Assembly: GCA_003056085.1 (NCBI GenBank)
Contig: LSNK01000001.1
Coordinates: 152,729 to 216,728, forward strand
From: Parcubacteria group bacterium M6-OD1-1
GTDB lineage: Bacteria; Patescibacteriota; Minisyncoccia; GWC2-36-17; M10-OD1-4
Direction: 5' to 3'
DNA length: 64,000 nt
Below, in pieces: positions 5,914-29,143 of this stretch. Numbering within the stretch: position 1 is the stretch's first letter; each line of letters starts with the position of its first letter. The translations under genes were made by a program, and so were the position numbers. The notes below the pieces were generated by a model that was not told the DNA's origin, ran no database searches, and saw only the letters and a program-made list of their open reading frames with translations.

Positions 5914-6020
5914 AATTTTTTATATTATAGTTGTTATATTCTTTTAATTGAGAAATTTTACTCAACAATCATATATATAACATTATTGCGTTCATAAAAT
6001 AACAAAAAAATGATATTTTG

Positions 6021-6180
6021 TCAAGGTTTATAGCATTGCAGCGTCAAGTTTACACTTGCCTTCTCTTCTAATTTTTCAATAGGAGTCATGCCATCCATAC
6101 CCAATCCTCTATGCTTCTTTTGGTAGTTGTAGTAATGAAGAAATAAATTAAGTTTGTATTGCATTTCATCTAAAGAAGAA
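6021..6180 (-). pseudogene. C-terminal fragment of a DDE (rve-type) transposase, truncated at a repeat copy
   Basis: Minus-strand translation gives LDEMQYKLNLFLHYYNYQKKHRGLGMDGMTPIEKLEE, the typical C-terminal tail of IS3/IS481-like integrase cores. The upstream part is missing. Confidence 0.4.
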
Positions 6181-6262
6181 AAAGGTGTCAGAAGAAAAAG
6201 GTGTCAGGTACCTTTTATTTTATTAAATAAAATACAAGTAAAAAGGTGTCAGGTACCTTTTT
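6180..6262. repeat. three tandem copies or half-copies of the AAAAGGTGTCAGGTACCTTTT repeat
   Basis: aaaaggtgtcag, then aaaaaggtgtcaggtacctttt, then aaaaggtgtcaggtacctttttt. The 3' flank (attttattaaataa-aatac) is also conserved with copy 1. Confidence 0.7.
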
Positions 6263-6280
6263 TCCCTCTTTCTATGCCCC

Positions 6281-6574
6281 ATGCATATTGGGAAAGATTT
6301 TTTCAACGACTTGATAGCTTTTATGACATCTGGACCATCTGAACTCTTCATACTTCGTAGAAAAAATGGTAAAGACACTCTACGTGGTAAGTTTGACACA
6401 AATATAAGGTGTAATGCGGTGCATTCACTAAATAGTGAAGAAAATTGGGTAAATAGAATAATTGATAAATTTAAGTTGGATATAACTACAAAGAAAGAGG
6501 AAGACCTAAAAAAGGTACCTGACACCTTTTCTTTACCTCTGGCAATGTTTCAAGTAGAAACACTTGCGAGATGA
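6281..6574 (+). CDS. hypothetical small protein between inverted repeat copies
   Basis: 97-aa ORF only, with no recognisable motif. Bounded by inverted copies of the 21-bp repeat. Confidence 0.25.
   Translation: MHIGKDFFNDLIAFMTSGPSELFILRRKNGKDTLRGKFDTNIRCNAVHSLNSEENWVNRIIDKFKLDITTKKEEDLKKVPDTFSLPLAMFQVETLAR
6509..6530. repeat. inverted copy of the AAAAGGTGTCAGGTACCTTTT repeat
   Basis: aaaaaggtacctgacacctttt is the reverse complement of the motif. Together with 6240-6262 it brackets the small ORF 6281-6574. Confidence 0.65.
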
Positions 6575-6709
6575 AACAAGTAGTCGCACCTACACGAGCA
6601 AGTACTAAGATTTTATCATAAAAATACAAAAAGAAAAAAGCCCCCGCACCAAAAAATTGGAGCGGAGGCTCAAGGTTTCAAGAGGAACAAGTCCTCAAGA
6701 GTTCAAGGT

Positions 6710-7501
6710 TCAGATTTTCCGAGCAGACGAAATGCCGAGCCCACTGCTACGGCCGCCATCCCAGCTGCCGTCGACATCGAGACCACCCCCACCGAAACCA
6801 CCGACGTAGATGTGGAACCCTTCCGCATCAACAGACGAAGTCCTGACATAGAACCCCTGAAGCAAGTAAGTACCACGAATCTTGAAGTAGGCGGTGACAG
6901 CATAGCTGACTTCGGAGGTGTTCGGAACGTGCTCAACCTCGGTGATGAGGTCTTTTTGTTCCTTCCACGTCTTACTGAACGAGTTAGGATAGCCTTCCTT
7001 ACGGATAGCGAGCCACTGTCCAGCTTTGACCATATCGGTCTTGGCGAACTTTTGGCTGTCGTTGGTGTACCACCCTTCGGTCTTCGAGTAGAAGAGTTGG
7101 TTTTCAAGCTCACGAACCTCGAGGAGGTTCATCTCCGTCTGTGGTCCTGCCAAGAGTATATACCCGTGACTATGGAACCACTGAAGGGTTTTCTCATCGG
7201 GAAGAGTTTCAGCGAGATGTTTGAGTTGGTTCTCACTGTAGCTGAAGCCGTAAGCTCCTGCCACTTCCTCGGGTGAGATGAAATCATCACCCAAAATGAG
7301 ATTGGCGAGTTCATATCCTTTCGGAGCATCATCACCACGTGCGATGGAAATCGCACGTACCATTCTTCCCTTGTTTTCAATTAACTCCTGAAGAAAATCA
7401 GGGGTTCCACCTTGTCTGCCGAACTCGGCAACGAACTCGTAGGCTTGACCGAGCGAAAAATCACTCGGCTTGCTGTGAGCTACACGATTTGCTGTTTTCA
7501 T
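6710..7501 (-). CDS. hypothetical protein of foreign (very high GC) composition
   Basis: 263-aa ORF with GC far above its flanks. Overlapping ORFs on other frames are typical artefacts of high GC. Gly-rich C-terminus (GGFGGGGLDVDGSWDGG). Confidence 0.5.
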   Translation of the reverse strand: MKTANRVAHSKPSDFSLGQAYEFVAEFGRQGGTPDFLQELIENKGRMVRAISIARGDDAPKGYELANLILGDDFISPEEVAGAYGFSYSENQLKHLAETLPDEKTLQWFHSHGYILLAGPQTEMNLLEVRELENQLFYSKTEGWYTNDSQKFAKTDMVKAGQWLAIRKEGYPNSFSKTWKEQKDLITEVEHVPNTSEVSYAVTAYFKIRGTYLLQGFYVRTSSVDAEGFHIYVGGFGGGGLDVDGSWDGGRSSGLGISSARKI

Positions 7502-7912
7502 CGCAGTACTCCTTTTATGCCAAGTTCGCTTTGACTATTGCGGTCTGTCTCGATATGAGATAAACATTATATATACCAGTGATTTGATATACAGAATGCT
7601 TATCTCATACAAGTTTTGAACCTTTTTATTACTGTAAAAGAACTATAAACACAGTATAACACTTTATATTATATATGTCAATAGTTCGCTATTTTCTGTT
7701 CCATATGAGCATTTATGTTGAGATTTGCTTTAATGGGCTAAAACAAGCATTTCTTCAAGGTTTTGAATTGAACTCTTGATATAATCTCTCTGTGAAACAA
7801 GTTCTGAAAGCCAAGCAGAGGGGCTACCAATTTGAGCGTAGTTATTATGCACAAGGTACGTTGTAGACAACTCACTATATAAAAAATCAATCATCTGCGG
7901 TAAGATTAAAAC

Positions 7913-8579: not shown

Positions 8580-8687
8580 TATACAGTAAACTTTTTGGAT
8601 TCAGCTTAAGGATGAATCCTCCACCAAACGCTCCAAATACACCATTTGGAGCGTTTGGTGCATTATAAGAGAGAAAGGTGGAGAAAT

Positions 8688-8766
8688 GTGTCAGGTACCT
8701 TTTATTTTATTAGAGTAAGAAAAGATATCATGAAAAAGGTAGCAGGTATCTTTTTTCCTAAGAATT
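8688..8766. repeat. two degenerate copies of the AAAAGGTGTCAGGTACCTTTT repeat
   Basis: gtgtcaggtaccttttatttt at 8688-8708 and aaaaaggtagcaggtatctttttt at 8743-8766. Confidence 0.55.
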
Positions 8767-8831: not shown

Positions 8832-9878
8832 TTAATTAAAATAATTATTTACAGCGTCTTCAAATTGCTCGATAAATATTTTTTTAAAATAAAAAATATT
8901 ATTTATCTCATAGAATAATAAGCTTGCCTTTTTGTATTCCCCAACATCTACAATCCTATAAGAAAATGGTATTGAATTATGTGCTAATAAAATAGCATTT
9001 GAAAGCATACGAGCTGTTCTTTTATTTCCATCCTCAAAAGCCTGAATATATGAAATTAAAATTAACCCAAGAAAAGCTTTTTCAAAAAATAATTCTTTTT
9101 TATTTATTAGGTCAATCATTCTTTCTAAGACTTCCTTAAGTTGAAATAAATTATCCAATGGCTTATATTTTGTAGCAGTAATACCCACCGCATTATTCCT
9201 AATATTTTTTGTAATATTAAGTTTTTTGGTTAAAACAGAATGAATATATTCAATATCAGAATAATTTAATTTTTTAAATCTCTCTTTGTTTAAAATAGAC
9301 TCATTAAAAGCATCTTTATGATTAAGAATCATTTGAGTCTCTTTTTCCGTTTTTCCTTTCCCAACAATATTTTCCTTAATCAAAGCTTCCGTACTTAAAA
9401 GTGAGTAAGTATTTCCCTCTATGACTGAAGATTTCCAAGAAAATTCAATCATTATTCTTTCAAATTCTTTATTTATAAGAGTTTGACTATCATATTCAGA
9501 AAAATTTTTTATAAACTCCCTTTGTAATTTTTCAATTTTTGCCTTTTCTTCTTTAGTGAAAATATCACCTTCCAAAATATTAAAAATTTCAAAATTAAAA
9601 CTTTTTTTTACTTCTCTTTCTGTGTATGGAATAGAAAAATATTTTTTAGCATCAATTTTATTTATAATTTCATAATTTTCAGACAAAGAGTAGATTACGC
9701 CTCTTCCTAATCCTTTTTTAAAAATTAAAAACTTTTCTTCTAGTTCTTTTAAATCTCTTTGTAGTGTTTTTCTATCAATATCCACACTCAAAAAAGACAG
9801 AATATCAGACACCGATACTTCTGTCCTTTTCTTTATAAAAGTAATAATTTTATCTTGTCTTTTTTGCTTTTTATTCAT
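8832..9878 (-). CDS. Fic/DOC-family protein with N-terminal winged-helix domain and a degenerate Fic motif (QAFEDGNKRTAR)
   Basis: The core motif aligns to HPFx(D/E)GNGRxxR. His is replaced by Gln and the second Gly by Lys. Basic N-terminal HTH-like region. Confidence 0.6.
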   Translation of the reverse strand: MNKKQKRQDKIITFIKKRTEVSVSDILSFLSVDIDRKTLQRDLKELEEKFLIFKKGLGRGVIYSLSENYEIINKIDAKKYFSIPYTEREVKKSFNFEIFNILEGDIFTKEEKAKIEKLQREFIKNFSEYDSQTLINKEFERIMIEFSWKSSVIEGNTYSLLSTEALIKENIVGKGKTEKETQMILNHKDAFNESILNKERFKKLNYSDIEYIHSVLTKKLNITKNIRNNAVGITATKYKPLDNLFQLKEVLERMIDLINKKELFFEKAFLGLILISYIQAFEDGNKRTARMLSNAILLAHNSIPFSYRIVDVGEYKKASLLFYEINNIFYFKKIFIEQFEDAVNNYFN

Positions 9879-10034: not shown

Positions 10035-10070
10035 AAAAAGGTGTCAGAAAAGGTGTCAGGTACCTTTTTT
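10035..10070. repeat. half-site plus full copy of the AAAAGGTGTCAGGTACCTTTT repeat
   Basis: aaaaaaggtgtcag followed by aaaaggtgtcaggtacctttttt. Confidence 0.65.
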
Positions 10071-10107
10071 CACTCATTTATAAAAATAATATTTTTTTTC
10101 ATATAGA

Positions 10108-10365
10108 TTATTTAATATTTTTTGAAGAATTATCTGATATTTTTACTTTTAGAAAAACGAGTATTATAAATAGAATAATAAATAATAAGAAAGAAATTGC
10201 ATAATAAGGAACTGCGTGATCTAAAAGATTATATACATAAGGACAACCAGGATTATTATCGCCAGAATTAGGCATTATAACTTTTCGAACTATTAATTGC
10301 ATACCGATTAAAATACCGATATTAACCCAAAATAAAATATATATAATTTTATAAATTTTTATCAT
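10108..10365 (-). CDS. small hydrophobic membrane protein
   Basis: 85 aa with two hydrophobic stretches. 4-bp overlap with the upstream gene. Confidence 0.3.
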   Translation of the reverse strand: MIKIYKIIYILFWVNIGILIGMQLIVRKVIMPNSGDNNPGCPYVYNLLDHAVPYYAISFLLFIILFIILVFLKVKISDNSSKNIK

Positions 10366-11402
10366 TTCTTAAAACAACCGATAAACCAAGCTCTTTTTAG
10401 AGTTATCTCCCCTTTTTCTGCACCAATAGAAAGATACTTTCCGTCTCTACCGTTCCCACTCTTAATTGTTACATTATCACAAGAATTTATTTTGTCTAAA
10501 TATTTTTCTTTAAAAGTATTATACGCATAATTTTTCTTTTTTTGAATATCCGTACAAGCATTAGCATATTCTCCACAGTACTCAAAACTCACACCATACA
10601 AAGACTCCTCTTTTCCAGTTTCCAGATTAATCTTTGTAAGCCTCGCTGCAGCAACTCCTGCATCACCCATAGAATAAATAAGTAAAAGTGAATTTTTATC
10701 TGGCATATAATCAACTACTGTTACAATTCCAACAGGTGAGGTTTCTATTTTGTCAACTATAATTTTATTTTGTTTTGATTTATTATTATAAACCCCCAAA
10801 ACACACGACATTCTTTCTGAACAACCATTTCTTAAATAAAATACTAAATTACCTGAAACATAAAAATCATTTATATTGGAATTTTCAGAAAATTCCAATT
10901 GATTAGTATTTTTAGTTTTTATATCAAAATAATTTATCTTTCCCTTCTTATTTATAAAATAAATTTTATCCCCCTCAAGTCTTGGCTTAGCTATCCATGG
11001 CTCTGTTGAAACAAAACCAATTTTTTGTTCTGTCTCAGTTTTTGTATTAAAAATAGAAAAGAAAAAAGCGTTTTCGTAATGATTGTTTTCTGTTGGTGTT
11101 CTTTCTTCTTTTAAAATAAGTAATCCTGAGTTTAAATTCTCAAAAGAAATGATCGGAAAACTTTTTATAAGTTTATCTATTTTAAGTTTAGTGCTTGTTG
11201 CTATGTTAAAAAAAGGCGGTGAAATATTGACAATATTTTTAGGAGGCTCAACTCCAATACCTCTATTATAAACTGAATCTGCACTTGAAGCTTTTTTGAA
11301 AACTGCCAAATTATACTTTTCAATAAAATAAAAAACACTAAAAATAATCAATCCGGAAATAATCAATGCTCCAATTATTAAAATATTACTTTTATTAAAC
11401 AT
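10362..11402 (-). CDS. hypothetical membrane-anchored or secreted protein
   Basis: N-terminal hydrophobic anchor. No other motif. Confidence 0.4.
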   Translation of the reverse strand: MFNKSNILIIGALIISGLIIFSVFYFIEKYNLAVFKKASSADSVYNRGIGVEPPKNIVNISPPFFNIATSTKLKIDKLIKSFPIISFENLNSGLLILKEERTPTENNHYENAFFFSIFNTKTETEQKIGFVSTEPWIAKPRLEGDKIYFINKKGKINYFDIKTKNTNQLEFSENSNINDFYVSGNLVFYLRNGCSERMSCVLGVYNNKSKQNKIIVDKIETSPVGIVTVVDYMPDKNSLLLIYSMGDAGVAAARLTKINLETGKEESLYGVSFEYCGEYANACTDIQKKKNYAYNTFKEKYLDKINSCDNVTIKSGNGRDGKYLSIGAEKGEITLKRAWFIGCFKK

Positions 11403-11427
11403 AAATTAACTAAGCTTATATATTAGA

Positions 11428-12348
11428 TTAACTTTCTAAAACATTAAATCCATTAAATATGGCATCACACATAAAATCTTCCAATAAACTGGAATCTCCA
11501 CTTTGTTGAGACTTATTTAAATAATTATAATAAAATCTTTTATTTTCTTGCTTAATAACTGCTGGCGGTAAATTTCTTCTCAAAAACATCGCTACCACAA
11601 TAAGACGCCCAATTCTTCCGTTGCCATCAGAAAAAGGATGAATTTTCTCAAAATCACTATGTATTTGAGAAATATGTTTTACTACATCATCTTCTTCTTT
11701 ATTTATATTTTTTATTAGCCTTACTACTAACTCTGGGACTTTCAAATAATTAGCAGTAGGAATATTGGCTCCGACAATTCTCACCCCATGATTTCTATAA
11801 AAACCCGCATCATCTCTAATGCTATTCATTAAAATGCTATGTAATTTTAAAATTAATAATTCTGTAATTTTAAAATTTGGCTTAATCTGTTTAAATAAAA
11901 ACTGTAAAGCTGTTTGATGATTTTTAGCCTCTAATTGTTCAATTAAATTTCTGTTTTTCAAAGATATGTTCCGAAATAAAATATCTGCAGTTTCATTTTC
12001 AGTTAAAGTACTGCCTTCTATGCTGTTTGTATTGTAAGTTAAAGATAAAATAAACTGATCATAAATATCTTTACGACTGATGATTTCTTTTAATATGTTT
12101 GTGTATTTTTTTGATTTATTGTAAATAACATCTTTTTTTGCTTGTAAAATATTATCTGGAATAATTTTTTGCCCTGTGTATTTTTTATACAATTCATCAA
12201 TCAACTCCCGCCTTCTTTTGTGAGGAACTGATTTGTTATTGATCCAGCTATTTAAAGTTGCAAAAGACACCTCCAGCTCATAAGCAATTTTTTCTTGAGT
12301 TAAGCCTGAAATTTGTTTAATTAATTTTAGTTTCTCTGATGTATTCAT
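11428..12348 (-). CDS. Fic-family protein (AMPylase-type) with N-terminal XRE-like HTH
   Basis: Canonical HPFSDGNGRIGR motif. N-terminal LTQEKIAYELEVSFATLNSWINNK helix-turn-helix. Confidence 0.8.
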   Translation of the reverse strand: MNTSEKLKLIKQISGLTQEKIAYELEVSFATLNSWINNKSVPHKRRRELIDELYKKYTGQKIIPDNILQAKKDVIYNKSKKYTNILKEIISRKDIYDQFILSLTYNTNSIEGSTLTENETADILFRNISLKNRNLIEQLEAKNHQTALQFLFKQIKPNFKITELLILKLHSILMNSIRDDAGFYRNHGVRIVGANIPTANYLKVPELVVRLIKNINKEEDDVVKHISQIHSDFEKIHPFSDGNGRIGRLIVVAMFLRRNLPPAVIKQENKRFYYNYLNKSQQSGDSSLLEDFMCDAIFNGFNVLES

Positions 12349-12421
12349 AATATCAGTATATTATAGAACTTTATAAAGTTTGTCAAATTTAATAAACTTT
12401 ATAAAGTTTTAATTTAATACT

Positions 12422-12566
12422 CTCTAAGCAAAACAAAAAATCTTTCAATTTCTTGAAAGATTTTTTGTTTTATTGTTTTTCTGTCTTAAACAAATGTTAA
12501 AGCATTTCCTTTGCTGTCTCCTCTGCCTGTTCTGCCTATTCTGTGGACATAGTCGTTGTATGACTG
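12422..12566. repeat. 145-bp direct repeat, copy A: orphan 27-codon 3' end of the DEAD-box helicase gene plus terminator hairpin
   Basis: Identical to 18305-18449. Contains the hairpin aaaaaatctttcaa-tttc-ttgaaagatttttt and an out-of-context coding tail ...YNDYVHRIGRTGRGDSKGNALTFV* on the minus strand. Confidence 0.85.
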
Positions 12567-12614
12567 CGTTTTGAGTTACTTTAAATAGTTGATATTTCAT
12601 GCAAATATTATAAA

Positions 12615-13112
12615 TTACTTTACAACAAACTTCTCAGATGCAATGTTAATAGAATAAGTTTTTTCCTCTTCAATTCTCTTAATTATTTTTGGAATATCTG
12701 GATCCCAAAATAAATCTTCCATGCTTTGTATTTTTTCGAGAGTAAACCAATCATATTCAAGATCTTCTGAATTTTCTATTAATCGTCCCGTTAGCTCCGA
12801 AATAAAGATTATCTTTACGGCATGCAAAACAATATCATTTTTATACTTTATTAATGGAAAAACACCTGCAAGTTCTTTTATTTTTACCTCAAGACCAGTT
12901 TCTTCTTCTGTCTCCCTCTTTGCTCCAATTATAATATCCTCTTCCATCTCAAGCCACCCTGAAGGAATGCTCCATTTTCCATTTTGATGAATTAGTAAGT
13001 ATTTATCATCTTTTACAACAACAGAGCCGACAATAATAAATGGCTGTGTGACACAGCGTTTGTTTCCTTGTTCTGTTTTAGTAACTATTTGTGGTTTATC
13101 TTTAGAATCCAT
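12615..13112 (-). CDS. NUDIX hydrolase
   Basis: Nudix box GWLEMEEDIIIGAKRETEEETGL matches GX5EX7REUXEEXGU. Confidence 0.8.
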   Translation of the reverse strand: MDSKDKPQIVTKTEQGNKRCVTQPFIIVGSVVVKDDKYLLIHQNGKWSIPSGWLEMEEDIIIGAKRETEEETGLEVKIKELAGVFPLIKYKNDIVLHAVKIIFISELTGRLIENSEDLEYDWFTLEKIQSMEDLFWDPDIPKIIKRIEEEKTYSINIASEKFVVK

Positions 13113-13114
13113 TT

Positions 13115-14056
13115 TTATTTTTTATTTAATATTATATTATAATATTTTTTTTCGGTATCATTGAATATTGTTTTCATCTCTTCTATGCAAGATTCTCCAT
13201 TTAACGCACTCAGAGGTAATATCAATATATTCTCATCTATAGTATTATAACACGGTTCAAATACACTTAAAAATATATTTAATTCATATAAACGTGTTGT
13301 TATCTTTTTTAAACACTTTTCATCACTTTCATTATTATGACTACCATACCTATCTATCCTTGATTTACATTTTAATAATGTTTGATGTAGTGCATAATAT
13401 GTATTATTAAAATTATCTTCTAAGTAACAGAAATCTTTACCATAGAGAACTATATTTCTATAGTAAGCAACAGAAATCTCATGCTTCGTCGCATCTTCAT
13501 GAACTACACCAGCATAAACGGTATCATTTACAGGAAAGTTTAAACTCATGTTATCTTCTCCATATACAAAATAATTAATATATTTTGCTTCGATATTTAG
13601 ATTACTTCTTAACTCTTCAGACACCAATACATTATCTAATGAATATGAAAATTCACTACCTTTAATAACAATTCCCAGATCTATATCGTCAGGAGCATAA
13701 TCCCTATATCCATAAACATAACTGCCGTATACGTAAATGGATATTATGTCCTCAATATTAAAATTAGGACATTTACTCATAACACTCTCAATAACAGAAT
13801 TTATATTTTCTTTTAATTTTAAAATTCTTCCAATTATCAATTTATTTTGATTGCTATCAAATACCCGATAATACGGATTTCTATTTTTCAAATTATCTAT
13901 AATATCTTTTTCTGAATCAAGACAGATATTTTCATTAGAAAAAATAAATAAGGGGTATTCATATTGATACCCCTTATTTAATTTATTATTATTTTCCTTT
14001 CTTATCTCTTTGATGATCTTCTCTGCGTAATTACGAGAGGACAATAAACTCCACAT
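13115..14056 (-). CDS. nucleotidyltransferase (Pol-beta superfamily minimal NTase fold)
   Basis: YGSYVYGYRDYAPDDIDLGIV matches the hG[GS]-x9-13-D-h-[DE]-h NTase signature. 2-bp gap to the NUDIX gene and 55-bp overlap with the upstream gene. Confidence 0.55.
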   Translation of the reverse strand: MWSLLSSRNYAEKIIKEIRKENNNKLNKGYQYEYPLFIFSNENICLDSEKDIIDNLKNRNPYYRVFDSNQNKLIIGRILKLKENINSVIESVMSKCPNFNIEDIISIYVYGSYVYGYRDYAPDDIDLGIVIKGSEFSYSLDNVLVSEELRSNLNIEAKYINYFVYGEDNMSLNFPVNDTVYAGVVHEDATKHEISVAYYRNIVLYGKDFCYLEDNFNNTYYALHQTLLKCKSRIDRYGSHNNESDEKCLKKITTRLYELNIFLSVFEPCYNTIDENILILPLSALNGESCIEEMKTIFNDTEKKYYNIILNKK

Positions 14057-15108
14057 TTATCACACCCTCTTGAAAGCGCCTCTGGATCACAACTTTTTAT
14101 CAACGATCTTTTTTGCAGGACATCCCTATCTTCTTCCATCAAATCAGGAATACGAGCCATATCTCCAGAATGAACAGCTATTTTTGCAGACATTATACCC
14201 CTTTCAGAATCATCAAGCGTAGGAAATCCCTTATGCTCATTAGCTGGAATAGTTGTAATTTTGCCAACATTAAATCTAGCCGCCTCTGCCGCACCTATAG
14301 CAGATGCTATATAATCATACGAACCGCATACATCGGTTACAACTGGTCCAAGTAATTGAAACGGCACATAATCCCCATGAGTCTCCCTGATGCTACCAAT
14401 CATTTCGGCTATCATATGAAATGGATAATGACTCATCACCTCAACTATAGATAAAACTCCATTTTCTTTCAGAAAAGAATACATCTCCATCTGTTTTCCA
14501 ACCTCCCACAAATGAGATCTATCGTTAGCTTCAACTATCCCCGCAGCTCTAAAAGTAGAACCTATGTGAATAGTAGTATTATACTCCTTAGCCAAGTCAA
14601 TAATATCATCTAAAATAGGATAATAAGGATTATCTACTTTATGCTTTCTCATCGTTACAGCTAAGAGACCTCCTTGTCTTCCTGTTATAGGGATCAAACG
14701 ACCACTTGAATAGGTCTCGAGTTCTTCTCTAGTTCTTGGAGTAAAATTGATCGTCATATGGTCACCCCCTCCAAGAATAAAGCACTCAATTTCTTCAAGT
14801 AAAACGTCAGGATAAACTTTTGTTTTGTTTTCTATAAAAGGTAAATAGATGGGATTCATACCAACACCAATGTGTGGGTATTTCTCTTTAACATACCTCC
14901 AGAGTGGTTGTTTGAGCCTGATTGTACTAAGGTCGGTTATTGTATGAACTCCAAGCTTAGCAGCAAGATCTATTTTTTTCATCTCTTGATGCACCGAATC
15001 TTCATCTACTTTATTAGTCCCCACAATGAAATTTATCTTTGTAGTAGCTCCCTCTCCTACTTCCAAATTAACATCACCAAGCTTATTGCCAACAATTATC
15101 TTATTCAC
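14002..15108 (-). CDS. short ThiC-family protein (phosphomethylpyrimidine-synthase-like, radical-SAM-type)
   Basis: LLGPVVTDVCGSYDYIASAIGAAEAA matches the ThiC LGPLxTD...GYDHIxSAIGAA block. A C-terminal CDKCGVYC resembles the ThiC CxxCxxxxC cluster motif. Other ThiC-like blocks are recognisable. Only 368 aa. Confidence 0.6.
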   Translation of the reverse strand: MNKIIVGNKLGDVNLEVGEGATTKINFIVGTNKVDEDSVHQEMKKIDLAAKLGVHTITDLSTIRLKQPLWRYVKEKYPHIGVGMNPIYLPFIENKTKVYPDVLLEEIECFILGGGDHMTINFTPRTREELETYSSGRLIPITGRQGGLLAVTMRKHKVDNPYYPILDDIIDLAKEYNTTIHIGSTFRAAGIVEANDRSHLWEVGKQMEMYSFLKENGVLSIVEVMSHYPFHMIAEMIGSIRETHGDYVPFQLLGPVVTDVCGSYDYIASAIGAAEAARFNVGKITTIPANEHKGFPTLDDSERGIMSAKIAVHSGDMARIPDLMEEDRDVLQKRSLIKSCDPEALSRGCDKCGVYCPLVITQRRSSKR

Positions 15109-15123
15109 TATATTGTCTCCTAT

Positions 15124-15813
15124 TTAAAAGATGTTCTTATCAGAAAATACATCTATAATCCTATTGTGTACAGTTTCGATATCATCATTTCCATCTATAC
15201 GCATAAGATCATACTTATTGGTCAAGCGCTCAAATTCATACCTGTATTGCTTCAAAAATGTAATACTAGAAGTATCATACCCACGCATCGCAACTCGCTC
15301 ATCTGCGATTTTAGGATCAGTGTCCAACCAAAAATTTAATTTTGGAGGATCAAGATAGAGAAGGATATTTTTTACATGCTCATAAGTTTCATCGGAGCAT
15401 CCATTAGCCATAGCTCCAGCAAGCCAATCAAAAACGGATCTTGAAGAAACAATCGTAAATCCCGAGTTTACAACGGAATCAATCTTCTCCATTTTATTCC
15501 TTAGCACCTCAAAGCTTATTGCCACCATGTACGCATCTATGCCAAGCAACGCATGCCCAGACTTGATGCCCATGCTCTTACCTATTATGTAACTCATTTC
15601 AGAAACAAAGTATCTTGTCTCCTCATATCTTGCTACAGCAATACCCTTTTCCCTTCTTAGCCACCCACATAATAAATTCATTTGGGTGGTTTTACCAGCG
15701 CCATCAATACCAGAAAAACCTATATGTACACCATTATCACATTTCATGATAAGTCTCCTATATACCTGATTATTAAATTGGAAAAAAGCAATCTTACACA
15801 CAAGGAATACCAT
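15124..15813 (-). CDS. thymidylate-kinase-like P-loop nucleotide kinase (probable true start at the internal Met, about 15747)
   Basis: IGFSGIDGAGKTT matches the Tmk P-loop and LDTDPKIADERVAMRG matches the Tmk lid region. The first 22 codons look like a spurious N-terminal extension. Confidence 0.6.
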   Translation of the reverse strand: MVFLVCKIAFFQFNNQVYRRLIMKCDNGVHIGFSGIDGAGKTTQMNLLCGWLRREKGIAVARYEETRYFVSEMSYIIGKSMGIKSGHALLGIDAYMVAISFEVLRNKMEKIDSVVNSGFTIVSSRSVFDWLAGAMANGCSDETYEHVKNILLYLDPPKLNFWLDTDPKIADERVAMRGYDTSSITFLKQYRYEFERLTNKYDLMRIDGNDDIETVHNRIIDVFSDKNIF

Positions 15814-15846
15814 GTTATAAGCTTCATGTCAATCAAATTTCTTAAA

Positions 15847-16133
15847 TTAACACCTGAAATGCACACTATTAAAAACTTGATGCGGTGTTAAATAGTTAAG
15901 ACGTTTACGAGGTCTGTTATTTAACTTTCTAACAGCTCTTTTTACATCTTTATCCGTAATTGTAGCAAAAGAAGATCTTTTAGGAAAATATTGTCTTAAT
16001 AAGCCATTAACATTTTCATTAGCGCCTCTTTGTTGAGGTTTGCCTTTGTCTGCAAAATACACTAAAGCTCCCGTTTCTTGTTCTATAAATTTATGTTCTG
16101 CAAACTCACTTCCATTGTCGTAAGTTATTGTAA
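15847..16133 (-). mobile_element. IS30-family transposase remnant (C-terminal ~95 aa, frameshifted upstream)
   Basis: Translation ITYDNGSEFAEHKF...QRGANENVNGLLRQYFPK...LNNRPRKRLNYLTPHQVF matches the IS30 DDE C-terminal signature. The upstream portion is out of frame. Confidence 0.75.
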
Positions 16134-16390
16134 GGCAACTGCCTTGTGGACAAATTCCAAAAAACCTCTTGTGTATTCTTTCATCAGTCTATTTCTCTTC
16201 TGTTGGTTAAATATTACATAGTGTTAACTCCAAGATAACTATACTTATATTTCACAACAAATCAACAATCTCCGCTGATCCATCCACCCATTTCCTTGTC
16301 TTATAAAGTATTTGATGCTATAAATCATATTGGTTTTAGAGGATGTTCTTTATATAAAAAATAAACAACTTAAACAAGGGGTATATCACT

Positions 16391-17851
16391 ATGTCAACAT
16401 CAGATATTTTTGAAATGGAAGACCTTATTTTTACAAACTCTACAGAACAAATCGTAACTGGAGGAAGAGATAAATTCCCTTTATTGTCTAAAGCATTCAA
16501 AGATATAAAGCAAATAGGCATTATCGGCTGGGGCTCTCAAGGTCCGGCGCAATCTCAAGACTTACGAGACTCACTGAAAAATACTGGGGTCAAAGTAAAG
16601 ATTGGACTTAGGGAAAACAGCTCATCTATGACAAAAGCCAGAAAAGCCGGCTTCACTGAAGAAAACGGCACTCTTGGTGAAATGTATGATGTTGTCGCTG
16701 AGTCAGATATGGTAATCTTGCTTATAGCAGATTCTGGTCAGGTTGCTGAGTACAAAAAGATATTCACAACAATGAAAAAAGGTGCTACTCTCGGTCTGTC
16801 TCATGGTTTTCTATTGGGACACTTGAAGAACGTTGGAGAGTATTTTCCAGACGATATAAACGTTGTAGGTGTTTGCCCTAAAGGTATGGGACCTTCTGTT
16901 CGTAGACTTTACGAGCAAGGTTCAGGTATCAACGATAGCTTTGCAGTGGAGTGTGACATAGATAGTCGCGCTACAGATATTGCTCTTGGCTGGGCAGTTG
17001 CACTGGGTGCTCCATGTATCTTTGAGACAACCCTGGAGATGGAGTATCGCAGTGATATCTTCGGCGAACGTGGTATCTTGCTCGGCGCCGTGCATGGAAT
17101 AGTTGAAGCACTCTATTATATTTTCTGCTTAAAAGGAGCGAGTAAAAAAGCTGCTTACAGACTGTCAGTAAAAAATATAACAGGTCCAATAAGCCATACT
17201 ATTTCTAAAAATGGAATAATTGGTGTTTACAACAGCCTCAATAGTGGCACCGATAAAGTAATCTTCCATGAAATGTACAAAGCTGCTTACACTCCTTCAT
17301 TGGCACTTCTCAGTGAAATATACGATGAAGTAGAAAATGGGAATGAAATAAGAAGTGTCATAATGGCGGGGAGAAGAAATAATGAATTCCCTATGGGCAA
17401 TATCGACAAAAGCGAGATGTGGGATACAGTAGGTAAAACAGTAAGAGAAACAAGAGGCGACAAAGAGATGCCAATATACCCCATGACTGCTGGTTTGTAT
17501 TGCGCTGTTATGATGGCGCAGATAGACTTATTAACAAAGAGAGGTCATTGTGTGAGTGAAATATGCAATGAATCAGTTATTGAAGCTGTTGATTCGCTCA
17601 ATCCTTATATGCATCATGCAGGGATTGCTCACATGATAGACAACTGTTCGACCACGGCGCGCCTTGGTGCGAGAAAATGGGGACCTCGCTTCTTTGCACT
17701 TATAATGCAAGAAATTAAACCTTCTTTTTCTAGTAGATTAATCGCGGATAATGACTTGATCGATGCCTTTGTGAATCATCCAATTCATAACGATCTCAAA
17801 GTATGCAGTGAACGCAGACCACCCATTGATATATCTCTCAACATTGATTAG
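16391..17851 (+). CDS. ilvC: ketol-acid reductoisomerase, long class-II form
   Basis: GWGSQG Rossmann motif plus LGLSHGF, VCPKGMG and FGERGILLG blocks. 486 aa with the duplicated C-terminal domain typical of class II. Confidence 0.8.
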   Translation: MSTSDIFEMEDLIFTNSTEQIVTGGRDKFPLLSKAFKDIKQIGIIGWGSQGPAQSQDLRDSLKNTGVKVKIGLRENSSSMTKARKAGFTEENGTLGEMYDVVAESDMVILLIADSGQVAEYKKIFTTMKKGATLGLSHGFLLGHLKNVGEYFPDDINVVGVCPKGMGPSVRRLYEQGSGINDSFAVECDIDSRATDIALGWAVALGAPCIFETTLEMEYRSDIFGERGILLGAVHGIVEALYYIFCLKGASKKAAYRLSVKNITGPISHTISKNGIIGVYNSLNSGTDKVIFHEMYKAAYTPSLALLSEIYDEVENGNEIRSVIMAGRRNNEFPMGNIDKSEMWDTVGKTVRETRGDKEMPIYPMTAGLYCAVMMAQIDLLTKRGHCVSEICNESVIEAVDSLNPYMHHAGIAHMIDNCSTTARLGARKWGPRFFALIMQEIKPSFSSRLIADNDLIDAFVNHPIHNDLKVCSERRPPIDISLNID

Positions 17852-17880
17852 TTGTTTTTTATTGTCTATTTAGTCCACAA

Positions 17881-17910
17881 GGACCTCTTTACAAAGAGGC
17901 CCTTTTTTAT
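17881..17910 (+). terminator. rho-independent terminator after ilvC
   Basis: ggacctcttt-aca-aagaggcc followed by TTTTTT. Confidence 0.55.
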
Positions 17911-18304
17911 TTCTTTAAAAATTTACAACATCTAATCCTACGATAAGAGACTGACCAATATTATACATCCTATGATAAAATACAGATATGGAAAGAAGAT
18001 GTTTCTATATATAATATTATTGGAATTGTATTAATTATTTTTGACATTTTCTTATTAAAAATAAAGTGAATATAAAACATGCCTATTTGTTTAAAAGTAA
18101 TAAGATTGAATAAAAATATTAAAAAAAAATTTCTGCTATTTATTACATGATACATACCTATTAATATCTATTCTAAGAACTATTCCTATATAAATATAAC
18201 ACAAAAGAGATCAGAAGCTTTTTCGTCATCTTTTTCATTCTTTTCCTTCTTTCTGACAACTTTTCTTCCATTTTTTTCTTTTAAAAAATATCATTTAACA
18301 CCCC

Positions 18305-18449
18305 CTCTAAGCAAAACAAAAAATCTTTCAATTTCTTGAAAGATTTTTTGTTTTATTGTTTTTCTGTCTTAAACAAATGTTAAAGCATTTCCTTTGCTGT
18401 CTCCTCTGCCTGTTCTGCCTATTCTGTGGACATAGTCGTTGTATGACTG
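18305..18449. repeat. 145-bp direct repeat, copy B: native 3' end of the helicase gene plus terminator
   Basis: Identical to 12422-12566. Confidence 0.85.
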
Positions 18450-19622
18450 AGGTATTGTGTAGTTTATAACATGAGTGATGTCTTTAATATCAAGACCTCT
18501 TGCCGCTACGTCTGTTGCAACTAAAATATTTATTCTGCTTTGTCTGAAGTGCGTTAAAGACCTCTGTCTTTGATGCTGTCTTTTGTCTCCATGAATAGAA
18601 TCAACCTTAAATCCATTTCCTCTTAAGTTGACTGTCAGTTCTTCTACATCTTTTTTAGTTTCTGAAAAGACGAGAACTTTTTTAAACTCAGGGTCAGAAA
18701 GAATACCTTTTAATGTATCTATTTTTGAAGCGTTTTTAACTCTTACAATATCTTGGTCAACATTGTCTGCTGTTTTGCCGACTTGAACAGACACCGTAAC
18801 GGGATTACGCAAAAATTGGTCTGTTATTCTTTTAATTTGATCCGGCATTGTAGCAGAAAAGAAAAGCGTCTGTCTTTTTGAATCAGTTTTGCTTAAAATT
18901 TCTCTTATGTCATCTATAAATCCCATATCTAACATCCTGTCTATTTCATCCACCACTACATTATTAAAAGATCTCAAATTAAGAGCGCCTCTTTTTTCAA
19001 GGTCTTTTAATCTCCCTGGTGTGCCTATTATGAAATTTGGATTTCTTTTTAAATCTCTTAACTGTTTGTGTATCGGCATACCTCCTATACATGTTGTTGA
19101 GTAAAGATTCATACCGTAAGCAAAAAGCTTGAACTCGGTTTCTATTTGGGAACAAAGCTCGCGCGTTGGAGCGATAATCAAAACTTTTTCCGTGCGGCTG
19201 CCGGCTACTTTATTTATCTGAGGCAATAAAAATGCTCCTGTCTTGCCTGTTCCTGTGTTTGCAAGCCCAACAACATCTTTCCCTTCAAGTATATACGGGA
19301 TGGATTGGTCTTGTATGGGAGTTGGTTTAACAAATTTTCTTCTTTTTATATTTTCCTGTATCTTTTCAGAAAAATTAAAATCAGCAAACAAATTATTTAC
19401 TTTTATTTTCTCGCTTTTTACGCCGGAAGCCTTTTTGACAAACTTAGATATGTCTATGTTGTTTGACCTTCTTTTAAACCCTCTTCCTTTGTATCCTCCG
19501 CTTCTTTTACCGGAACGATGCTTTGAAAAGCTGCCGTACGATTTTGAGTTTGTTGATGACCTGTTTTTATTACCACCAAATCTATTACCAGACCTCTGTC
19601 TGGATTTATTATTATTATTCAT
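18369..19622 (-). CDS. DEAD-box ATP-dependent RNA helicase
   Basis: Q-motif region, GTGKT Walker A, DEID (DEAD variant), SAT and HRIGRTGR motifs. Arg/Gly-rich N-terminus. Confidence 0.85.
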   Translation of the reverse strand: MNNNNKSRQRSGNRFGGNKNRSSTNSKSYGSFSKHRSGKRSGGYKGRGFKRRSNNIDISKFVKKASGVKSEKIKVNNLFADFNFSEKIQENIKRRKFVKPTPIQDQSIPYILEGKDVVGLANTGTGKTGAFLLPQINKVAGSRTEKVLIIAPTRELCSQIETEFKLFAYGMNLYSTTCIGGMPIHKQLRDLKRNPNFIIGTPGRLKDLEKRGALNLRSFNNVVVDEIDRMLDMGFIDDIREILSKTDSKRQTLFFSATMPDQIKRITDQFLRNPVTVSVQVGKTADNVDQDIVRVKNASKIDTLKGILSDPEFKKVLVFSETKKDVEELTVNLRGNGFKVDSIHGDKRQHQRQRSLTHFRQSRINILVATDVAARGLDIKDITHVINYTIPQSYNDYVHRIGRTGRGDSKGNALTFV

Positions 19623-19955
19623 AATTTTCCTTTCCCTGTCTGTAAGTTGGTTTCAGACAGTAATTAACACTTCCTAATCCCTAAAATCTTTATTTAGAGA
19701 CTTCAATTGCTGTATAAAAAATGAAATGCTAATTACCGAATGTATCTTAAGATGAGAGGTTTTTAAGATACGCTTTAATAGATTCTCTCTTTATAGAACA
19801 ATTTTAATTAAAATTAGGACTTAAGCACTTAAGTCCTAAAAAATTATTAACTTTCAGTACCATAGCATAAACTTTAAAAAATAGCAAGGAGTTGCGCTGT
19901 GAGCTTAAAAACAATGGATTTTTTATTTTTATATTAAATATGATATACTTTTTGT

Positions 19956-20747
19956 ATGATTGAAGGTTTTATATTTGGAACATTACAGGGAATAGCAGAA
20001 TGGCTTCCGGTTAGTTCGGAGGGGGTTATTTTTTTGGTGCAGACAAACTTTTTTTCAAATTTAACTATTGAACAAACAATAAGATTTGCGCTCTTTTTGC
20101 ATTTGGGGACCGCTCTTGCCGCTTTGCTGTATTTTTGGAAAGATTTTTGGAATCTTTTGAAAACTTTTTTCAACTATAAAAATGAAACCGGTGAAAACAA
20201 GCTTGTTTTGAATTTTCTGATAATCTCCACTTTAATAAGCGGAACCTTAGGGATTTTACTGCTTAAAACCTTAATAAATATTGAGGGGGCTGTTGAACTT
20301 TCAGGGAAAACCTTAACTTTCTTGATAGGTATATTGCTTTTGTTTACCGCATACCTGCAGCTTAAGAAAAAATCTGAAACCTCCAGAAACTTAAACGACT
20401 TAAAACCATCTGACGGTATTTGGCTTGGCATAGCACAAGGTATCGCAGTGCTTCCCGGGCTCTCACGCTCAGGAATGACTGTTTCTGTACTGCTTTTGAG
20501 AAAATTTGACGATGTTTATGCCTTGAAACTGAGTTTTTTAATGAGTGTACCTATAGTGATTGCGGGAAATATAATTTTAAACATTAAAGATTTTTCTTTA
20601 TCATTGGAAAATCTAATCGGCTTTTTCTTTGCATTTTTATTTGGAATTTTAACCATCAAATTTTTGCTTGAGTTTGCAAGAAAAGTAAATTTTGGATACT
20701 TTATATTGATATTTGGAATTTTAATGATGATTTCTATCTTTTTCTAA
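19956..20747 (+). CDS. uppP: undecaprenyl-diphosphatase (UppP/BacA family)
   Basis: EWLPVSSEG and PGLSRSGMT motifs. Polytopic membrane protein. The His of the usual SS(T/S)GH motif is replaced (SSEGV). Confidence 0.75.
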   Translation: MIEGFIFGTLQGIAEWLPVSSEGVIFLVQTNFFSNLTIEQTIRFALFLHLGTALAALLYFWKDFWNLLKTFFNYKNETGENKLVLNFLIISTLISGTLGILLLKTLINIEGAVELSGKTLTFLIGILLLFTAYLQLKKKSETSRNLNDLKPSDGIWLGIAQGIAVLPGLSRSGMTVSVLLLRKFDDVYALKLSFLMSVPIVIAGNIILNIKDFSLSLENLIGFFFAFLFGILTIKFLLEFARKVNFGYFILIFGILMMISIFF

Positions 20748-23432: not shown

Positions 23433-24332
23433 ATGAATGAAGAAAAAAACAAACAAAAAATAATCTTAGTCACAGGCGGAGCCGGGTTCATTGGCTCGCA
23501 TTTGATAGAAGAGTTAGTCAAAGATAAAAATAATAAAGTTATATCTTTAGATAATTATTTCACCGGAAGCACTAACAACCACATTGAAGGCGCTGAATAC
23601 ATTGAAGGTCATACAAAAGATATAAAAAAATACATAAAAGAAACTCCGGACATTATTTATCATCTTGGTGAATATTCTCGTGTTGCAAAAAGCATAGAAG
23701 AACCTGATATTGTTTGGGACCTCAATATAAATGGAACTTTCGGTGTTTTGGAATTTTGGCGAGAAACAAAATGCAAACTTGTTTATTCTGGGTCTTCAAC
23801 AAAATTTTCGGATTCACGCAAAGAAGGAACAGAGGGACGAAATCTTTCTCCTTACACATGGATGAAGTCGGCAAATACAGAATTAGTTAAAAATTATGGA
23901 AATTGGTTTGAGTTGCCCTATGCCATAACCTATTTTTATAATGTTTACGGACCAAGAGAATTGTCCGGAGAATATGGAACATATATAGAAATCCTGAAAC
24001 AAAAATATCTAAATGACGAACCTTTTGAAGTAAGATTACCTGGGACTCAAGAGCGTAATTATACACATATAAAAGACACCATTTCCGGACTTCTACTTGT
24101 GGGGGAACAAGGAAAGGGAGATGAGTACGGCATTGGAGCAGAAGAAAATTATACAACTCTTGATGTCGCCGAGCTTTTTGACCATAAAATAAAAATGCTT
24201 CCTGAAAGAAAAACGAGTAGACCTTCAACAAAAAATATAGACATCAAAAAAGTTAAGAATTTGGGCTGGAAACAAAAATACGCATTGAAGGAATATATAA
24301 AAGACATTATTAAATCCAAAAAAAATGCCTAA
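23433..24332 (+). CDS. NAD-dependent epimerase/dehydratase (extended SDR) family protein
   Basis: VTGGAGFIGSHL glycine-rich NAD motif and a YxxxK-like catalytic region. The start is moved to the Met after the terminator. Confidence 0.65.
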   Translation: MNEEKNKQKIILVTGGAGFIGSHLIEELVKDKNNKVISLDNYFTGSTNNHIEGAEYIEGHTKDIKKYIKETPDIIYHLGEYSRVAKSIEEPDIVWDLNINGTFGVLEFWRETKCKLVYSGSSTKFSDSRKEGTEGRNLSPYTWMKSANTELVKNYGNWFELPYAITYFYNVYGPRELSGEYGTYIEILKQKYLNDEPFEVRLPGTQERNYTHIKDTISGLLLVGEQGKGDEYGIGAEENYTTLDVAELFDHKIKMLPERKTSRPSTKNIDIKKVKNLGWKQKYALKEYIKDIIKSKKNA

Positions 24333-25539
24333 AAAAATACTCATCTTTTCTCTTTCCTACTATCCAAATTATGTAGGAGGAGCAGAGGTTGCGATAAAAG
24401 AAATAACCGATAGAATTTCACAAAAAGATATGGAATTTCATTTAGTATGTTTGCGATTTGACAGCAACCTGCCAAAAGTTGAAAAAATAGGAAATGTACT
24501 TGTGCATCGCATTGGTTTTTCAAAAAAAAATCCGGACTTGCCTCAGCTCAAAGAATACCCCTTGCACTTTAATAAGCCTCTTTATCAATTTCTTGCGGCC
24601 TTAAAAGCCATGCAACTTCACAAAAAATATAAATATGACGGTATTTGGGCTATGATGGCGCACTCAACCGGGGTTCCGGCAGCTATTTTTAAATTATTCA
24701 ATCCAAAGGTACATTACGCTTTGACTCTTCAAGAAGGGGATCCGACAGAATATATAGAAAAAACAATGAAACCTCTCTGGCCTTTGTTCACCCGCGCATT
24801 CACCAAAGCAGATGTTATCCAGCCAATATCAAACTTTTTAGGAGAATGGGCAAAAAAAAGAAATTATAAAGGACCTATAGAAATTATCCCAAATGGTTTT
24901 TCTCCTGCGTCTTTTTCTCAAAAATATTCTGAAGAAGAACTCAAAAAACTTAAAAAGAAACTCGGAAAAAAAGAAAATGATATCTACATTGTCACTGTTT
25001 CACGGTTAGTGCATAAAAATGCCGTAGATGATGTTATACGAGCGCTCCCCCTTTTGTCTGAAAATATAAAATTTATAGTAGTTGGAGGCGGTCCGGATGA
25101 AGAAACACTCCGCAGTCTTGCGAAAGAACTGAAAGTTTCAGAGCGTGTAAAATTTATCGGACAAGTTGATAGAACAGAAACGGCAAAATATAGAAGAATT
25201 TCTGATATATTCTGTCGTCCCAGTCGTTCTGAAGGAATGGGAAATTCATTTGTTTCTACCATGGTCACACGTTTGCCAATTATTACAACCCAAGAAGGAG
25301 GTATTGCTGATTTTCTTTTTGATGCCAAAAGAAACCCTGATAAGCCAACCACGGGCTGGGCGGTAGACAAAGACAGTCCGAAGCAAATAGCCGAAGCTGT
25401 AAACGACATAATTGCAAATCCAAAACAAGTTAAAAAAGTAACTGAAAATGCATTTGAGCTTGCTTATGAAAATTACAACTGGGATTTCATTGCAAAAGAT
25501 ATACAAGAAAAAGTCCTAACTCCAAAAAAGAAAGTATAG
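24325..25539 (+). CDS. GT4-family glycosyltransferase
   Basis: C-terminal E-x7-E region (SRSEGMGNSFVSTMVTRLPIITTQEGG) and the GT-B two-domain layout. Confidence 0.7.
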   Translation: MPKKILIFSLSYYPNYVGGAEVAIKEITDRISQKDMEFHLVCLRFDSNLPKVEKIGNVLVHRIGFSKKNPDLPQLKEYPLHFNKPLYQFLAALKAMQLHKKYKYDGIWAMMAHSTGVPAAIFKLFNPKVHYALTLQEGDPTEYIEKTMKPLWPLFTRAFTKADVIQPISNFLGEWAKKRNYKGPIEIIPNGFSPASFSQKYSEEELKKLKKKLGKKENDIYIVTVSRLVHKNAVDDVIRALPLLSENIKFIVVGGGPDEETLRSLAKELKVSERVKFIGQVDRTETAKYRRISDIFCRPSRSEGMGNSFVSTMVTRLPIITTQEGGIADFLFDAKRNPDKPTTGWAVDKDSPKQIAEAVNDIIANPKQVKKVTENAFELAYENYNWDFIAKDIQEKVLTPKKKV

Positions 25540-25628
25540 ACAAAAATAGAATTTTATGCTAAAAAATAATCAAGTAAAATTGATTATTTTTTAGCATATT
25601 AAAAACTACATAAATTAGGAGAAACGAA

Positions 25629-25907
25629 ATGAACTTTATGTTTATTTATTGGAATCATAAAAACCGAATAAACCCAATGCAACTGGCCGACCTTTTAACA
25701 AAAGCCTTGCGGGAAATCAACGCTTCAGACACTAAAGAAGTACCAACCGTCACAGCAGTACCATATTATTTAGCGATTGCTATAAGTAGCGAAATTATTG
25801 ACACTACCACAGCAAATAAACTGTGGAACGATTATGCTATAAATGACTGCAACAACAGTTTATTAGAAGATGATATTGTTTTGTCAAAGAAATACGAGGA
25901 GAAATAA
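25629..25907 (+). CDS. hypothetical protein
   Basis: ORF only. Confidence 0.3.
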   Translation: MNFMFIYWNHKNRINPMQLADLLTKALREINASDTKEVPTVTAVPYYLAIAISSEIIDTTTANKLWNDYAINDCNNSLLEDDIVLSKKYEEK

Positions 25908-26649: not shown

Positions 26650-26730
26650 ATCTTTCTAAGAAAATAAATCTTACAGGCTCCCCTAATAGGGAGCCTTTTT
26701 TATTTTTTGTAAAATGCTATAATTAGTTTC

Positions 26731-27504: not shown

Positions 27505-27507
27505 AAT

Positions 27508-28608: not shown

Positions 28609-29143
28609 GTTTAAATTTCTCTTTAAGCATTTTTAAATGCATATTCCAAGAATTTTCGTATAATTTAATTTCCTTCTCCGGTTTCTCATCAAATGGCAAA
28701 ATTTCCGGCAACTTTAAAGAAATCTCCTTTATTACAAATTTAGCATGATTAGAAATAAAATTATTTATATATTTTGATATTTTATTTTTCTTTATTTTTT
28801 CATCTGCAACAGGATCTCCAATATGGAAAATAAACGACTTGCGCCTTAAAAGAAAAATCAAGCCAACAGGCAATTCAACAGATGCCCCATTTTCAGAATA
28901 AATAAGATCCGCATCTTTTGAAGCTCGTAAAAGCGAATAGAAAAAACTTAACAAACGCAAAGGCAATAAACGATTTTTGTTTATACAAATAAAAGAAACT
29001 CCTGAAATTTTTTCCGGCAATCGCCCATACATAATGACCGTTAGCTCATGCTCTCCGGCTAATCTTTTTGTCAGCTCTTTTATATAAATTGCCGGACCGC
29101 CTATTTCCGGTGGATATATTGGTGTTGTTATTATTATTCTCAT
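28595..29143 (-). CDS. GT4 glycosyltransferase N-terminal-domain protein (no C-terminal catalytic half)
   Basis: IITTPIYPPEIGGPAIYIKEL start typical of GT4 N-domains. Only 182 aa. 14-bp overlap with the downstream kinase-like gene. Confidence 0.45.
   Translation of the reverse strand: MRIIITTPIYPPEIGGPAIYIKELTKRLAGEHELTVIMYGRLPEKISGVSFICINKNRLLPLRLLSFFYSLLRASKDADLIYSENGASVELPVGLIFLLRRKSFIFHIGDPVADEKIKKNKISKYINNFISNHAKFVIKEISLKLPEILPFDEKPEKEIKLYENSWNMHLKMLKEKFKHATK

Follow-up and report, generated by a model that had tools for sequence, protein, structure and literature searches.

A duplicated helicase gene end flanks a strain-specific mosaic block in a Parcubacteria group bacterium

The duplicated helicase 3' end

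We analysed a 64,000-nt stretch of the genome of Parcubacteria group bacterium M6-OD1-1 (contig LSNK01000001.1 of GCA_003056085.1, forward-strand positions 152,729 to 216,728; hereafter the window), in which the 3' end of a DEAD-box RNA helicase gene occurs twice, as a direct repeat that brackets a block of cargo genes at positions 12567-18304. An initial, sequence-only reading of this DNA had described two identical copies of 145 bp, and a repeat search and pairwise alignment bear this out: 12422-12566 and 18305-18449 match with zero mismatches at a spacing of 5,883 bp, and similarity drops to what chance would give past either border. Within the window, a 54-nt probe taken from it matched these two copies only (0 matches expected in shuffles), and the window repeat search gave no other repeats of 40 nt or more involving the bracketed block. 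The gene content ascribed to the block, namely NUDIX, nucleotidyltransferase (NTase), ThiC-like and kinase genes, an IS30 remnant and ilvC, was recovered by domain searches. The features that define the duplication are as follows.

12422-12566, minus strand: repeat copy A, an orphan helicase 3' fragment with a terminator hairpin (12430-12471), lying 3' of the NUDIX gene and ahead of the Fic promoter
12566-12567, no strand: illegitimate junction between the cargo flank and helicase codon 392, past which neither the helicase nor the genome L116 described below shows continued homology
18305-18449, minus strand: repeat copy B, the genuine last 26 helicase codons, the stop codon, a terminator hairpin (18313-18354) and 8 nt past the hairpin
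18369-19622, minus strand: intact gene for the DEAD-box helicase, which closes a block that is syntenic with relatives (18372 to ~29143)

Copy B had been taken for the real end of the helicase gene together with its terminator, and the sequence agrees with this assignment. On the minus strand it encodes helicase residues 392-417 (QSYNDYVHRIGRTGRGDSKGNALTFV) up to the stop codon at 18369-18371, and the helicase C-terminus, including motif VI, is conserved across eight homologues. The hairpin at 18313-18354 is perfect over 19-20 bp, is followed by a T-run and is picked up by a terminator scan; its folding energy is -21.8 kcal/mol (z = -6.1 versus shuffles). Copy A, which had been described as the same piece out of context beside the Fic promoter region, is indeed located between the NUDIX stop codon (12615) and a Fic promoter-like site (12358-12386). 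When copy A is read in the helicase frame, stop codons are found just upstream and a start codon is absent. Since the frame is closed by these upstream stops and lacks a start, copy A is an orphan, dead fragment.

A single-copy site in a conspecific genome

Through the 90%-identity cluster of the helicase we found a contig from a metagenome-assembled genome (MAG), LSNV01000009.1 of GCA_003056185.1 (referred to here as L116), whose helicase is identical to that of the window at 414 of 417 residues. The flanks of the site are collinear on both sides at ~98.7% nucleotide identity or better, and since the backbone is mostly 99-100% identical, we treat the two genomes as conspecific. The gene order in L116 is helicase, a single repeat copy, a 137-bp helicase-Fic spacer, Fic, a 346-aa gene and an 85-aa gene. 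The spacer is composed of the 64 nt of the repeat that follow the stop codon and of 73 nt that are identical to window 12349-12421. In blastn searches, L116 4114-11328 aligned with window 25514-18293 and L116 11174-13692 with window 12566-10048 (98.65% identity), and these two alignments overlap in L116 by exactly one repeat copy. At this site the window is longer than L116 by exactly 5,883 bp, that is, by the cargo plus one repeat. The single repeat of L116 differs from both window copies by one synonymous base (TAT versus TAC).

An empty site, with Fic adjacent to the helicase 3' end, is therefore present in a relative, and it is not the case that every relative carries the bracketed arrangement with diverged repeats. 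The proposal that the block was inserted at, or recombined through, the helicase terminator region with duplication of the target is supported by this single-copy site. Relatives of the helicase place the organism in the Patescibacteria. The nearest GTDB species representatives by helicase, only 57-60% identical and none with the neighbours found in the window, were too distant and too different in their neighbours to serve as a test for the empty site. The single-copy state must be ancestral; the polarity of gain or loss relative to L116 is not fixed by the comparison, and a crossover between the copies would regenerate precisely the empty site. The block had also been flagged as recently acquired or mobile. 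The first half of this description agrees with a strain-specific gain relative to L116, and the second half needs refining, in that nothing in the block can move it.

The sequence-only reading had offered a tandem-rearrangement scar as a second explanation of the repeat. Here the helicase end and the cargo would have been duplicated in tandem with subsequent loss of the second cargo, or replication would have switched templates, in either case with no incoming DNA. In favour of such an origin, the two copies are identical and share their one difference from L116, and the hairpin palindrome could promote template switching. However, this scheme needs two events, or a cargo that already lay beside the helicase; it leaves the absence of the cargo at the site in the sister strain unexplained, and no other duplicated cargo sequence was detected in the window. 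We therefore find no support for the scar and regard an origin of this kind as very unlikely.

Short-read contigs from two other sources, Logan run SRR14803397 and GCA_006243085.1 (VAPK01), were recovered by exact-protein look-up. As their sequence agrees with the window at 100% identity, we rejected them as independent strains; they may stem from its own data or from related data. At each flank recovered, the contigs end 30 nt (k=31) or 101 nt inside the repeat, with ends at 12451, 12537 and 18334 in one assembly and at 12522 and 18405 in the other, which argues for a true graph repeat with these exact borders. At graph level all four flank junctions exist, and the contigs are compatible with either pairing across the 145 bp. 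The repeat interrupts both of these short-read assemblies (k=31 and k=101) and leaves two solutions of the graph, so that wrong joins in MAG contigs can arise at this place.

It is therefore conceivable that the window was mis-threaded through the repeat, and that the real chromosome reads helicase-repeat-Fic with the 5.9-kb segment (cargo and one repeat) existing apart from it, as a circle or as a variant in the minority. All contigs of the k=31 and k=101 assemblies end within the repeat, both flank pairings are valid paths, and the empty-site arrangement does exist in the sister strain. On the other hand, a circle that carries the helicase gene end must itself derive from an integrated form, and as the segment has no replication gene, it would not persist at chromosomal coverage. 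In addition, contig L003, from an independent k=31 assembly, contains the junction between cargo and helicase codon 392, and the source assembly resolved the repeat inside a 229-kb contig. We consider mis-threading to be quite unlikely.

Cargo of the block

The bracketed block contains the following features.

12584-15832, minus strand: four-gene cassette with its own promoter region, 83% identical in nucleotide sequence over 3,250 bp to a cassette on contig L092
12615-13112, minus strand: NUDIX gene (domain search)
13115-14056, minus strand: pol-beta-type NTase gene (weak match; GS...DIDLG motif)
14002-15108, minus strand: ThiC-like radical SAM gene (ThiC_Rad_SAM; domain search)
15124-15813, minus strand: thymidylate-kinase-like (dTMP-kinase-like) kinase gene (domain search)
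15847 to ~16190, minus strand: IS30-family transposase remnant encoding the C-terminal ~113 aa only; its 3' end abuts the cassette promoter and its 5' truncation lies near 16138/16139
16305-17891, plus strand: ilvC segment (gene 16391-17851, terminator 17884-17899), 82% identical in nucleotide sequence to contig L114
17892-18304, no strand: AT-rich spacer of 413 bp (GC 0.23) between ilvC and copy B

L092, a JGI contig, carries the cassette at 4497-7727 among genes for a large serine integrase, a CI/S24-type repressor, a ParB-methyltransferase, TerS, TerL and a nuclease, surroundings that we read from this gene content as a temperate-phage-like context. Homology between the two cassettes stops 18 bp short of copy A at one end and 15 bp short of the IS30 stop codon at the other. 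The cassette is kept as a unit in several further metagenomic loci (L093-L096, L111 and L112). Its ThiC-like protein is a short ThiC paralogue of ~365 aa with a C-terminal CX2CX3C motif, versus CX2CX4C in ThiC, and belongs to a rare family with 47 database matches only, from the candidate phyla radiation (CPR), DPANN and a few others. Neither the ThiC-like protein nor the kinase has a PADLOC model, and the cassette has no PHROG model. Scans of IMG/VR with the ThiC-like protein, the NTase and the family alignment found nothing, and searches of GenBank phages and PLSDB plasmids gave canonical thiC at <30% identity and one spurious match only. With this block, a phage-borne cassette has reached a host chromosome.

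The remaining pieces have other affinities. Both other assemblies (k=31 and k=101) fork exactly at the truncation point of the IS30 remnant, 16138/16139 (the end of L003 and the starts of L005 and L004), a sign that the sample contains other copies of IS30, or a variant haplotype, with at least 101 nt in common. The ilvC product is a 486-aa ketol-acid reductoisomerase whose nearest named homologues are from Desulfobulbaceae (63-65% aa identity), and relatives at 76-86% occur in a few metagenomes. On L114, a contig of a related bacterium, clpB directly follows ilvC (778-2238). In the window, 16 kb separate ilvC from clpB, which has no ilvC beside it; this lone, foreign-type ilvC has, as far as gene order tells, changed location within the lineage. 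No match to any compared sequence was found for the 413-bp spacer. The composition of the cargo is mildly atypical, with a tetranucleotide distance in the top 5% and GC values in the top 3-6% for the ThiC-like and kinase genes and for ilvC, and is not decisive. Judged from these homologies, the four parts of the 5,738-bp block (cassette, IS30 remnant, ilvC segment and spacer) form a mosaic in which at least three pieces have histories of their own, and the block is not a coherent mobile element. For metabolism in CPR and DPANN organisms, leads are offered by the rare ThiC-like cassette and by the stray ilvC of Desulfobulbaceae type.

Neither an integrase nor an intact transposase was found in the block or among the open reading frames (ORFs) examined between window 826 and 22636. 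Likewise, searches for site-specific recombinases with Pfam, NCBIfam and PHROGs on the main block ORFs (the four cassette genes, the IS30 remnant and ilvC) gave only the IS30 stump. These results bear on the possibility that the 145 bp are a site-specific attachment (att) site. Prophages, integrative and conjugative elements (ICEs) and cis-mobilizable elements (CIMEs) are known from the 3' ends of protein genes, as in the case of phage 21 or e14 in icd and of ICESt1 and CIMEs at fda, and integrase-less CIMEs bounded by att sites are also known. The block could accordingly be a decayed or integrase-less element, CIME-like or a prophage remnant, that brought its own copy of the gene end and is movable in trans. 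As in such elements, the direct repeats at our locus correspond to the 3' end of the target gene, with the gene kept intact on one side and an orphan 3' fragment on the opposite side, and an empty site exists in L116. The closest relative of the cassette lies in a temperate-phage-like contig with integrases, L092, and the repeat includes a long perfect palindrome.

Unlike in those systems, neither tyrosine nor serine recombinases, nor an excisionase, were found at the locus within the range given above. The integrases of L092 belong to the large serine recombinases, a class not known to generate long direct repeats, and nothing resembling the repeat occurs on L092. Two DNA probes found no copy of the repeat in IMG/VR, and a cognate autonomous element was not found, within a limited sampling. 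Moreover, the cargo does not form a coherent element but is pieced together, with ilvC inverted and an IS stump included. An att-site origin is, in our estimate, unlikely. Slightly more doubtful is a stronger form of it, in which a recombinase acting in trans, such as one from an L092-like temperate phage, would recognise the repeat as a working attachment site, and the block would be an excisable, integrase-less, mobilisable islet. If true, a trans-mobilisable islet of Patescibacteria would ferry a phage-derived kinase/ThiC-like/NTase/NUDIX cassette, possibly nucleotide- or cofactor-modifying.

We also considered whether transposition with a long target-site duplication, or composite transposition mediated by IS30, could have duplicated the 145 bp. 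An IS30-family remnant does lie inside the block, and the fork of the other assemblies at its truncation point suggests further copies in the sample. However, the remnant encodes only the transposase C-terminus and is internal rather than terminal, and repeat searches found no terminal inverted repeats at the block ends. The ends of the cargo coincide instead with breaks in homology to unrelated sources. IS30 elements generate duplications of 2-3 bp, and short duplications of this or the composite-transposon type were not what we observed; the duplication measures 145 bp and is therefore not a transposase-type target duplication. Of all the explanations weighed here, transposition is the least probable.

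Probable recombination at the edge of a core block

The helicase neighbourhood was also compared among relatives. Those with 75-77% helicase identity keep the order upstream of the helicase (tsaD, an epimerase and glycosyltransferases; window 18372 to ~29143). In every relative examined synteny ends at the helicase 3' end, and the downstream genes differ in each, as seen in four related helicase contexts (75-77% aa; L086/L087/L088, L089/L090 and L091) and in the conspecific L116. Since their downstream genes are all different, the 75-77% relatives were not used as evidence for an empty site and instead reveal a hot spot. Even the Fic module common to the window and L116 extends over only 2.5 kb, and the strains diverge again beyond window 10048. 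On this comparative evidence, the helicase terminator thus separates a core block from a hypervariable region that begins there. Recombinase-free hot spots of horizontal transfer flanked by core genes are an established concept in comparative genomics. Our site resembles them in the variable content at the helicase 3' flank and the synteny on the other side, and differs in that such sites rarely keep the clean duplication scar of a single event.

Taken together, the findings at the locus are those expected of an insertion-duplication: direct duplicates flank the insert, one copy belongs to an intact gene and the other is an orphan, and a relative has a single-copy empty site. The analysis shows that the 145 bp are duplicated, that copy A is an orphan, that L116 has an empty site, that the cargo is of mosaic origin and that a recombinase is absent within the range examined; the route of recombination and its direction are inferred. 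Our preferred reading, to which we assign a probability of about 0.7, is that the block is a strain-specific gain made through homology-anchored recombination in the helicase, which left an insertion-duplication scar. Helicase sequence would have served as the homologous anchor, with one illegitimate join at helicase codon 391/392 (12566|12567), and the last 145 bp of the recipient's helicase, or a copy of them, would have been left as an orphan ahead of Fic. The parts of the cargo (phage-derived cassette, IS30 stump and foreign ilvC) would have been brought together earlier, by separate events.

Two routes fall under this reading, and we hold them to be roughly equal in likelihood. The linear route would start from a fragment of a conspecific donor in which the spacer, ilvC, the IS30 remnant and the cassette already lay behind the helicase. 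Homologous recombination in or upstream of the helicase, combined with an illegitimate join at the far end, would then push the last 145 bp of the recipient's gene back before Fic. This process is homology-facilitated illegitimate recombination (HFIR), also called C-terminal displacement. In the circular route, a circularised fragment made up of the helicase end and the cargo would integrate by a single RecA-type crossover within the 145 bp, in a Campbell-type insertion-duplication. By either route, the two repeats, being perfect and long enough, could recombine homologously, excise the block and restore the empty site.

The distribution of single-nucleotide polymorphisms (SNPs) relative to L116 was considered with respect to these routes. 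There are 34 SNPs in window 18305-20044 (helicase) and none from there on to 22008 (~2 kb), and 4 in the first 1.9 kb on the Fic side. The helicase tract fits a donor tract imported together with the cargo and so gives a faint hint of the linear route, whereas the SNP common to both copies leans, also weakly, to the circular route or to later gene conversion.

Several points weigh against the preferred reading or against one of its routes. The empty site of L116 comes from a short-read MAG, for which a collapsed path is possible in principle. The order across the repeat is resolved in the window's own assembly only, and the graphs fit an empty site plus a 5,883-bp circle equally well. An SNP density such as that of the helicase tract is reached in 12% of backbone windows (top 12%), and the co-import test was not significant. 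Furthermore, the TAC SNP common to both copies fits a duplication or gene conversion within the lineage better than an L116-like recipient in the linear route. Finally, a donor with the order helicase-repeat-spacer-ilvC and a different far flank was not found, and the route is deduced from anatomy and precedent.

With regard to precedent, experiments in Escherichia coli with one-sided homology to a gene end gave 56 single crossovers of a circular molecule among 60 integrants, and the 14 integrants sequenced carried duplications of the gene end of 109-950 bp (PMC3240628). Campbell-type integration of this kind matches our locus in that direct duplicates of a gene end, one intact and one orphan, flank the insert, and the 109-950-bp range brackets 145 bp (PMC3240628). 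It differs in that our case is natural and from uncultured Patescibacteria, the circular intermediate is hypothetical, and the insert is accessory DNA of chromosomal type rather than a plasmid. Orphan 3' ends displaced downstream by an HFIR-like process have been proposed for type VI secretion system (T6SS) and Rhs loci (PMC5361080). C-terminal displacement at Rhs, contact-dependent inhibition (CDI) and T6SS loci (PMC5361080 and its references) shares with our locus a conserved upstream anchor gene, an old 3' end that is pushed back with the downstream genes and retained, and a recurrent hot spot whose content differs per strain. By contrast, the anchor here is a housekeeping RNA helicase and not a polymorphic toxin, and the displaced piece amounts to 26 codons and a terminator. 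Since the displaced helicase end is identical to the new one, no new protein variant results.

The phenomenon is thus of known kinds (insertion-duplication, C-terminal displacement and recombinase-free hot spots), and the locus is a new and unusually clean instance in Patescibacteria. It offers a clean, datable case of very recent gene gain in a Patescibacteria (CPR) population, apparently by ordinary recombination at a core-gene boundary and not by a dedicated element. The reduced genomes of CPR bacteria are often regarded as poor in classical mobile elements. Because the perfect 145-bp repeats make the gain reversible, presence/absence polymorphism of the block within populations is predicted.

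On the far side of copy A from the cargo lies one further feature shared with L116.

10048-12421, minus strand: Fic module, consisting of the Fic gene (11428-12348), its promoter-like site (12358-12386), the 346-aa gene (10362-11402) and the 85-aa gene (10108-10365)

The window holds two HTH-Fic genes, 8832-9878 and 11428-12348, located 1.5 kb apart, which match the candidate defence families PDC-S04 and SoFic; what lies downstream of the helicase resembles a small island, of defence genes or of variable content. A near-perfect 24+24-nt palindrome at 12364-12411 overlaps the Fic promoter-like site (TTGACA-17-TAATAT, 12386-12358) and may serve the helix-turn-helix (HTH) domain of the Fic protein as an operator. 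Several gene ends in the window carry a recurrent hairpin motif, AAAAGGTGTCAGGTACCTTTT (480-520, 6195-6261, 6510-6530, 8684-8712 and 10035-10068); on the Fic side, it is within the copy at 10035-10068 that homology with L116 stops. Larger intergenic stretches at 480-731 and 1702-1798 match L092 2675-2839, L116 13769-14068 and L086. The small repeats shared with L092, L116 and L086 were considered as att remnants, a reading rejected for one component, which is a common terminator hairpin motif of the lineage and does not account for the longer stretches.

On the opposite, syntenic side of the helicase, genes for glycosylation are polymorphic between the conspecific genomes. In a comparison of window 23600-29186 with L116 4114-6040, window 23600-25514 was only ~65% identical to L116, and the 3.7 kb at 25515-29186, with glycosyltransferase genes for cell-surface glycosylation, are absent from L116. 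Elsewhere in the window, a 47-52-nt segment beside tRNA-Leu is repeated 41.5 kb away near an alpha/beta-hydrolase gene (1806-1857 and 43336-43387). Rfam also matched RNase P RNA and LOOT RNA in the window (coordinates listed together with the tRNA-Leu repeat: 43458-43541, 57626-58065 and 63867-63990).

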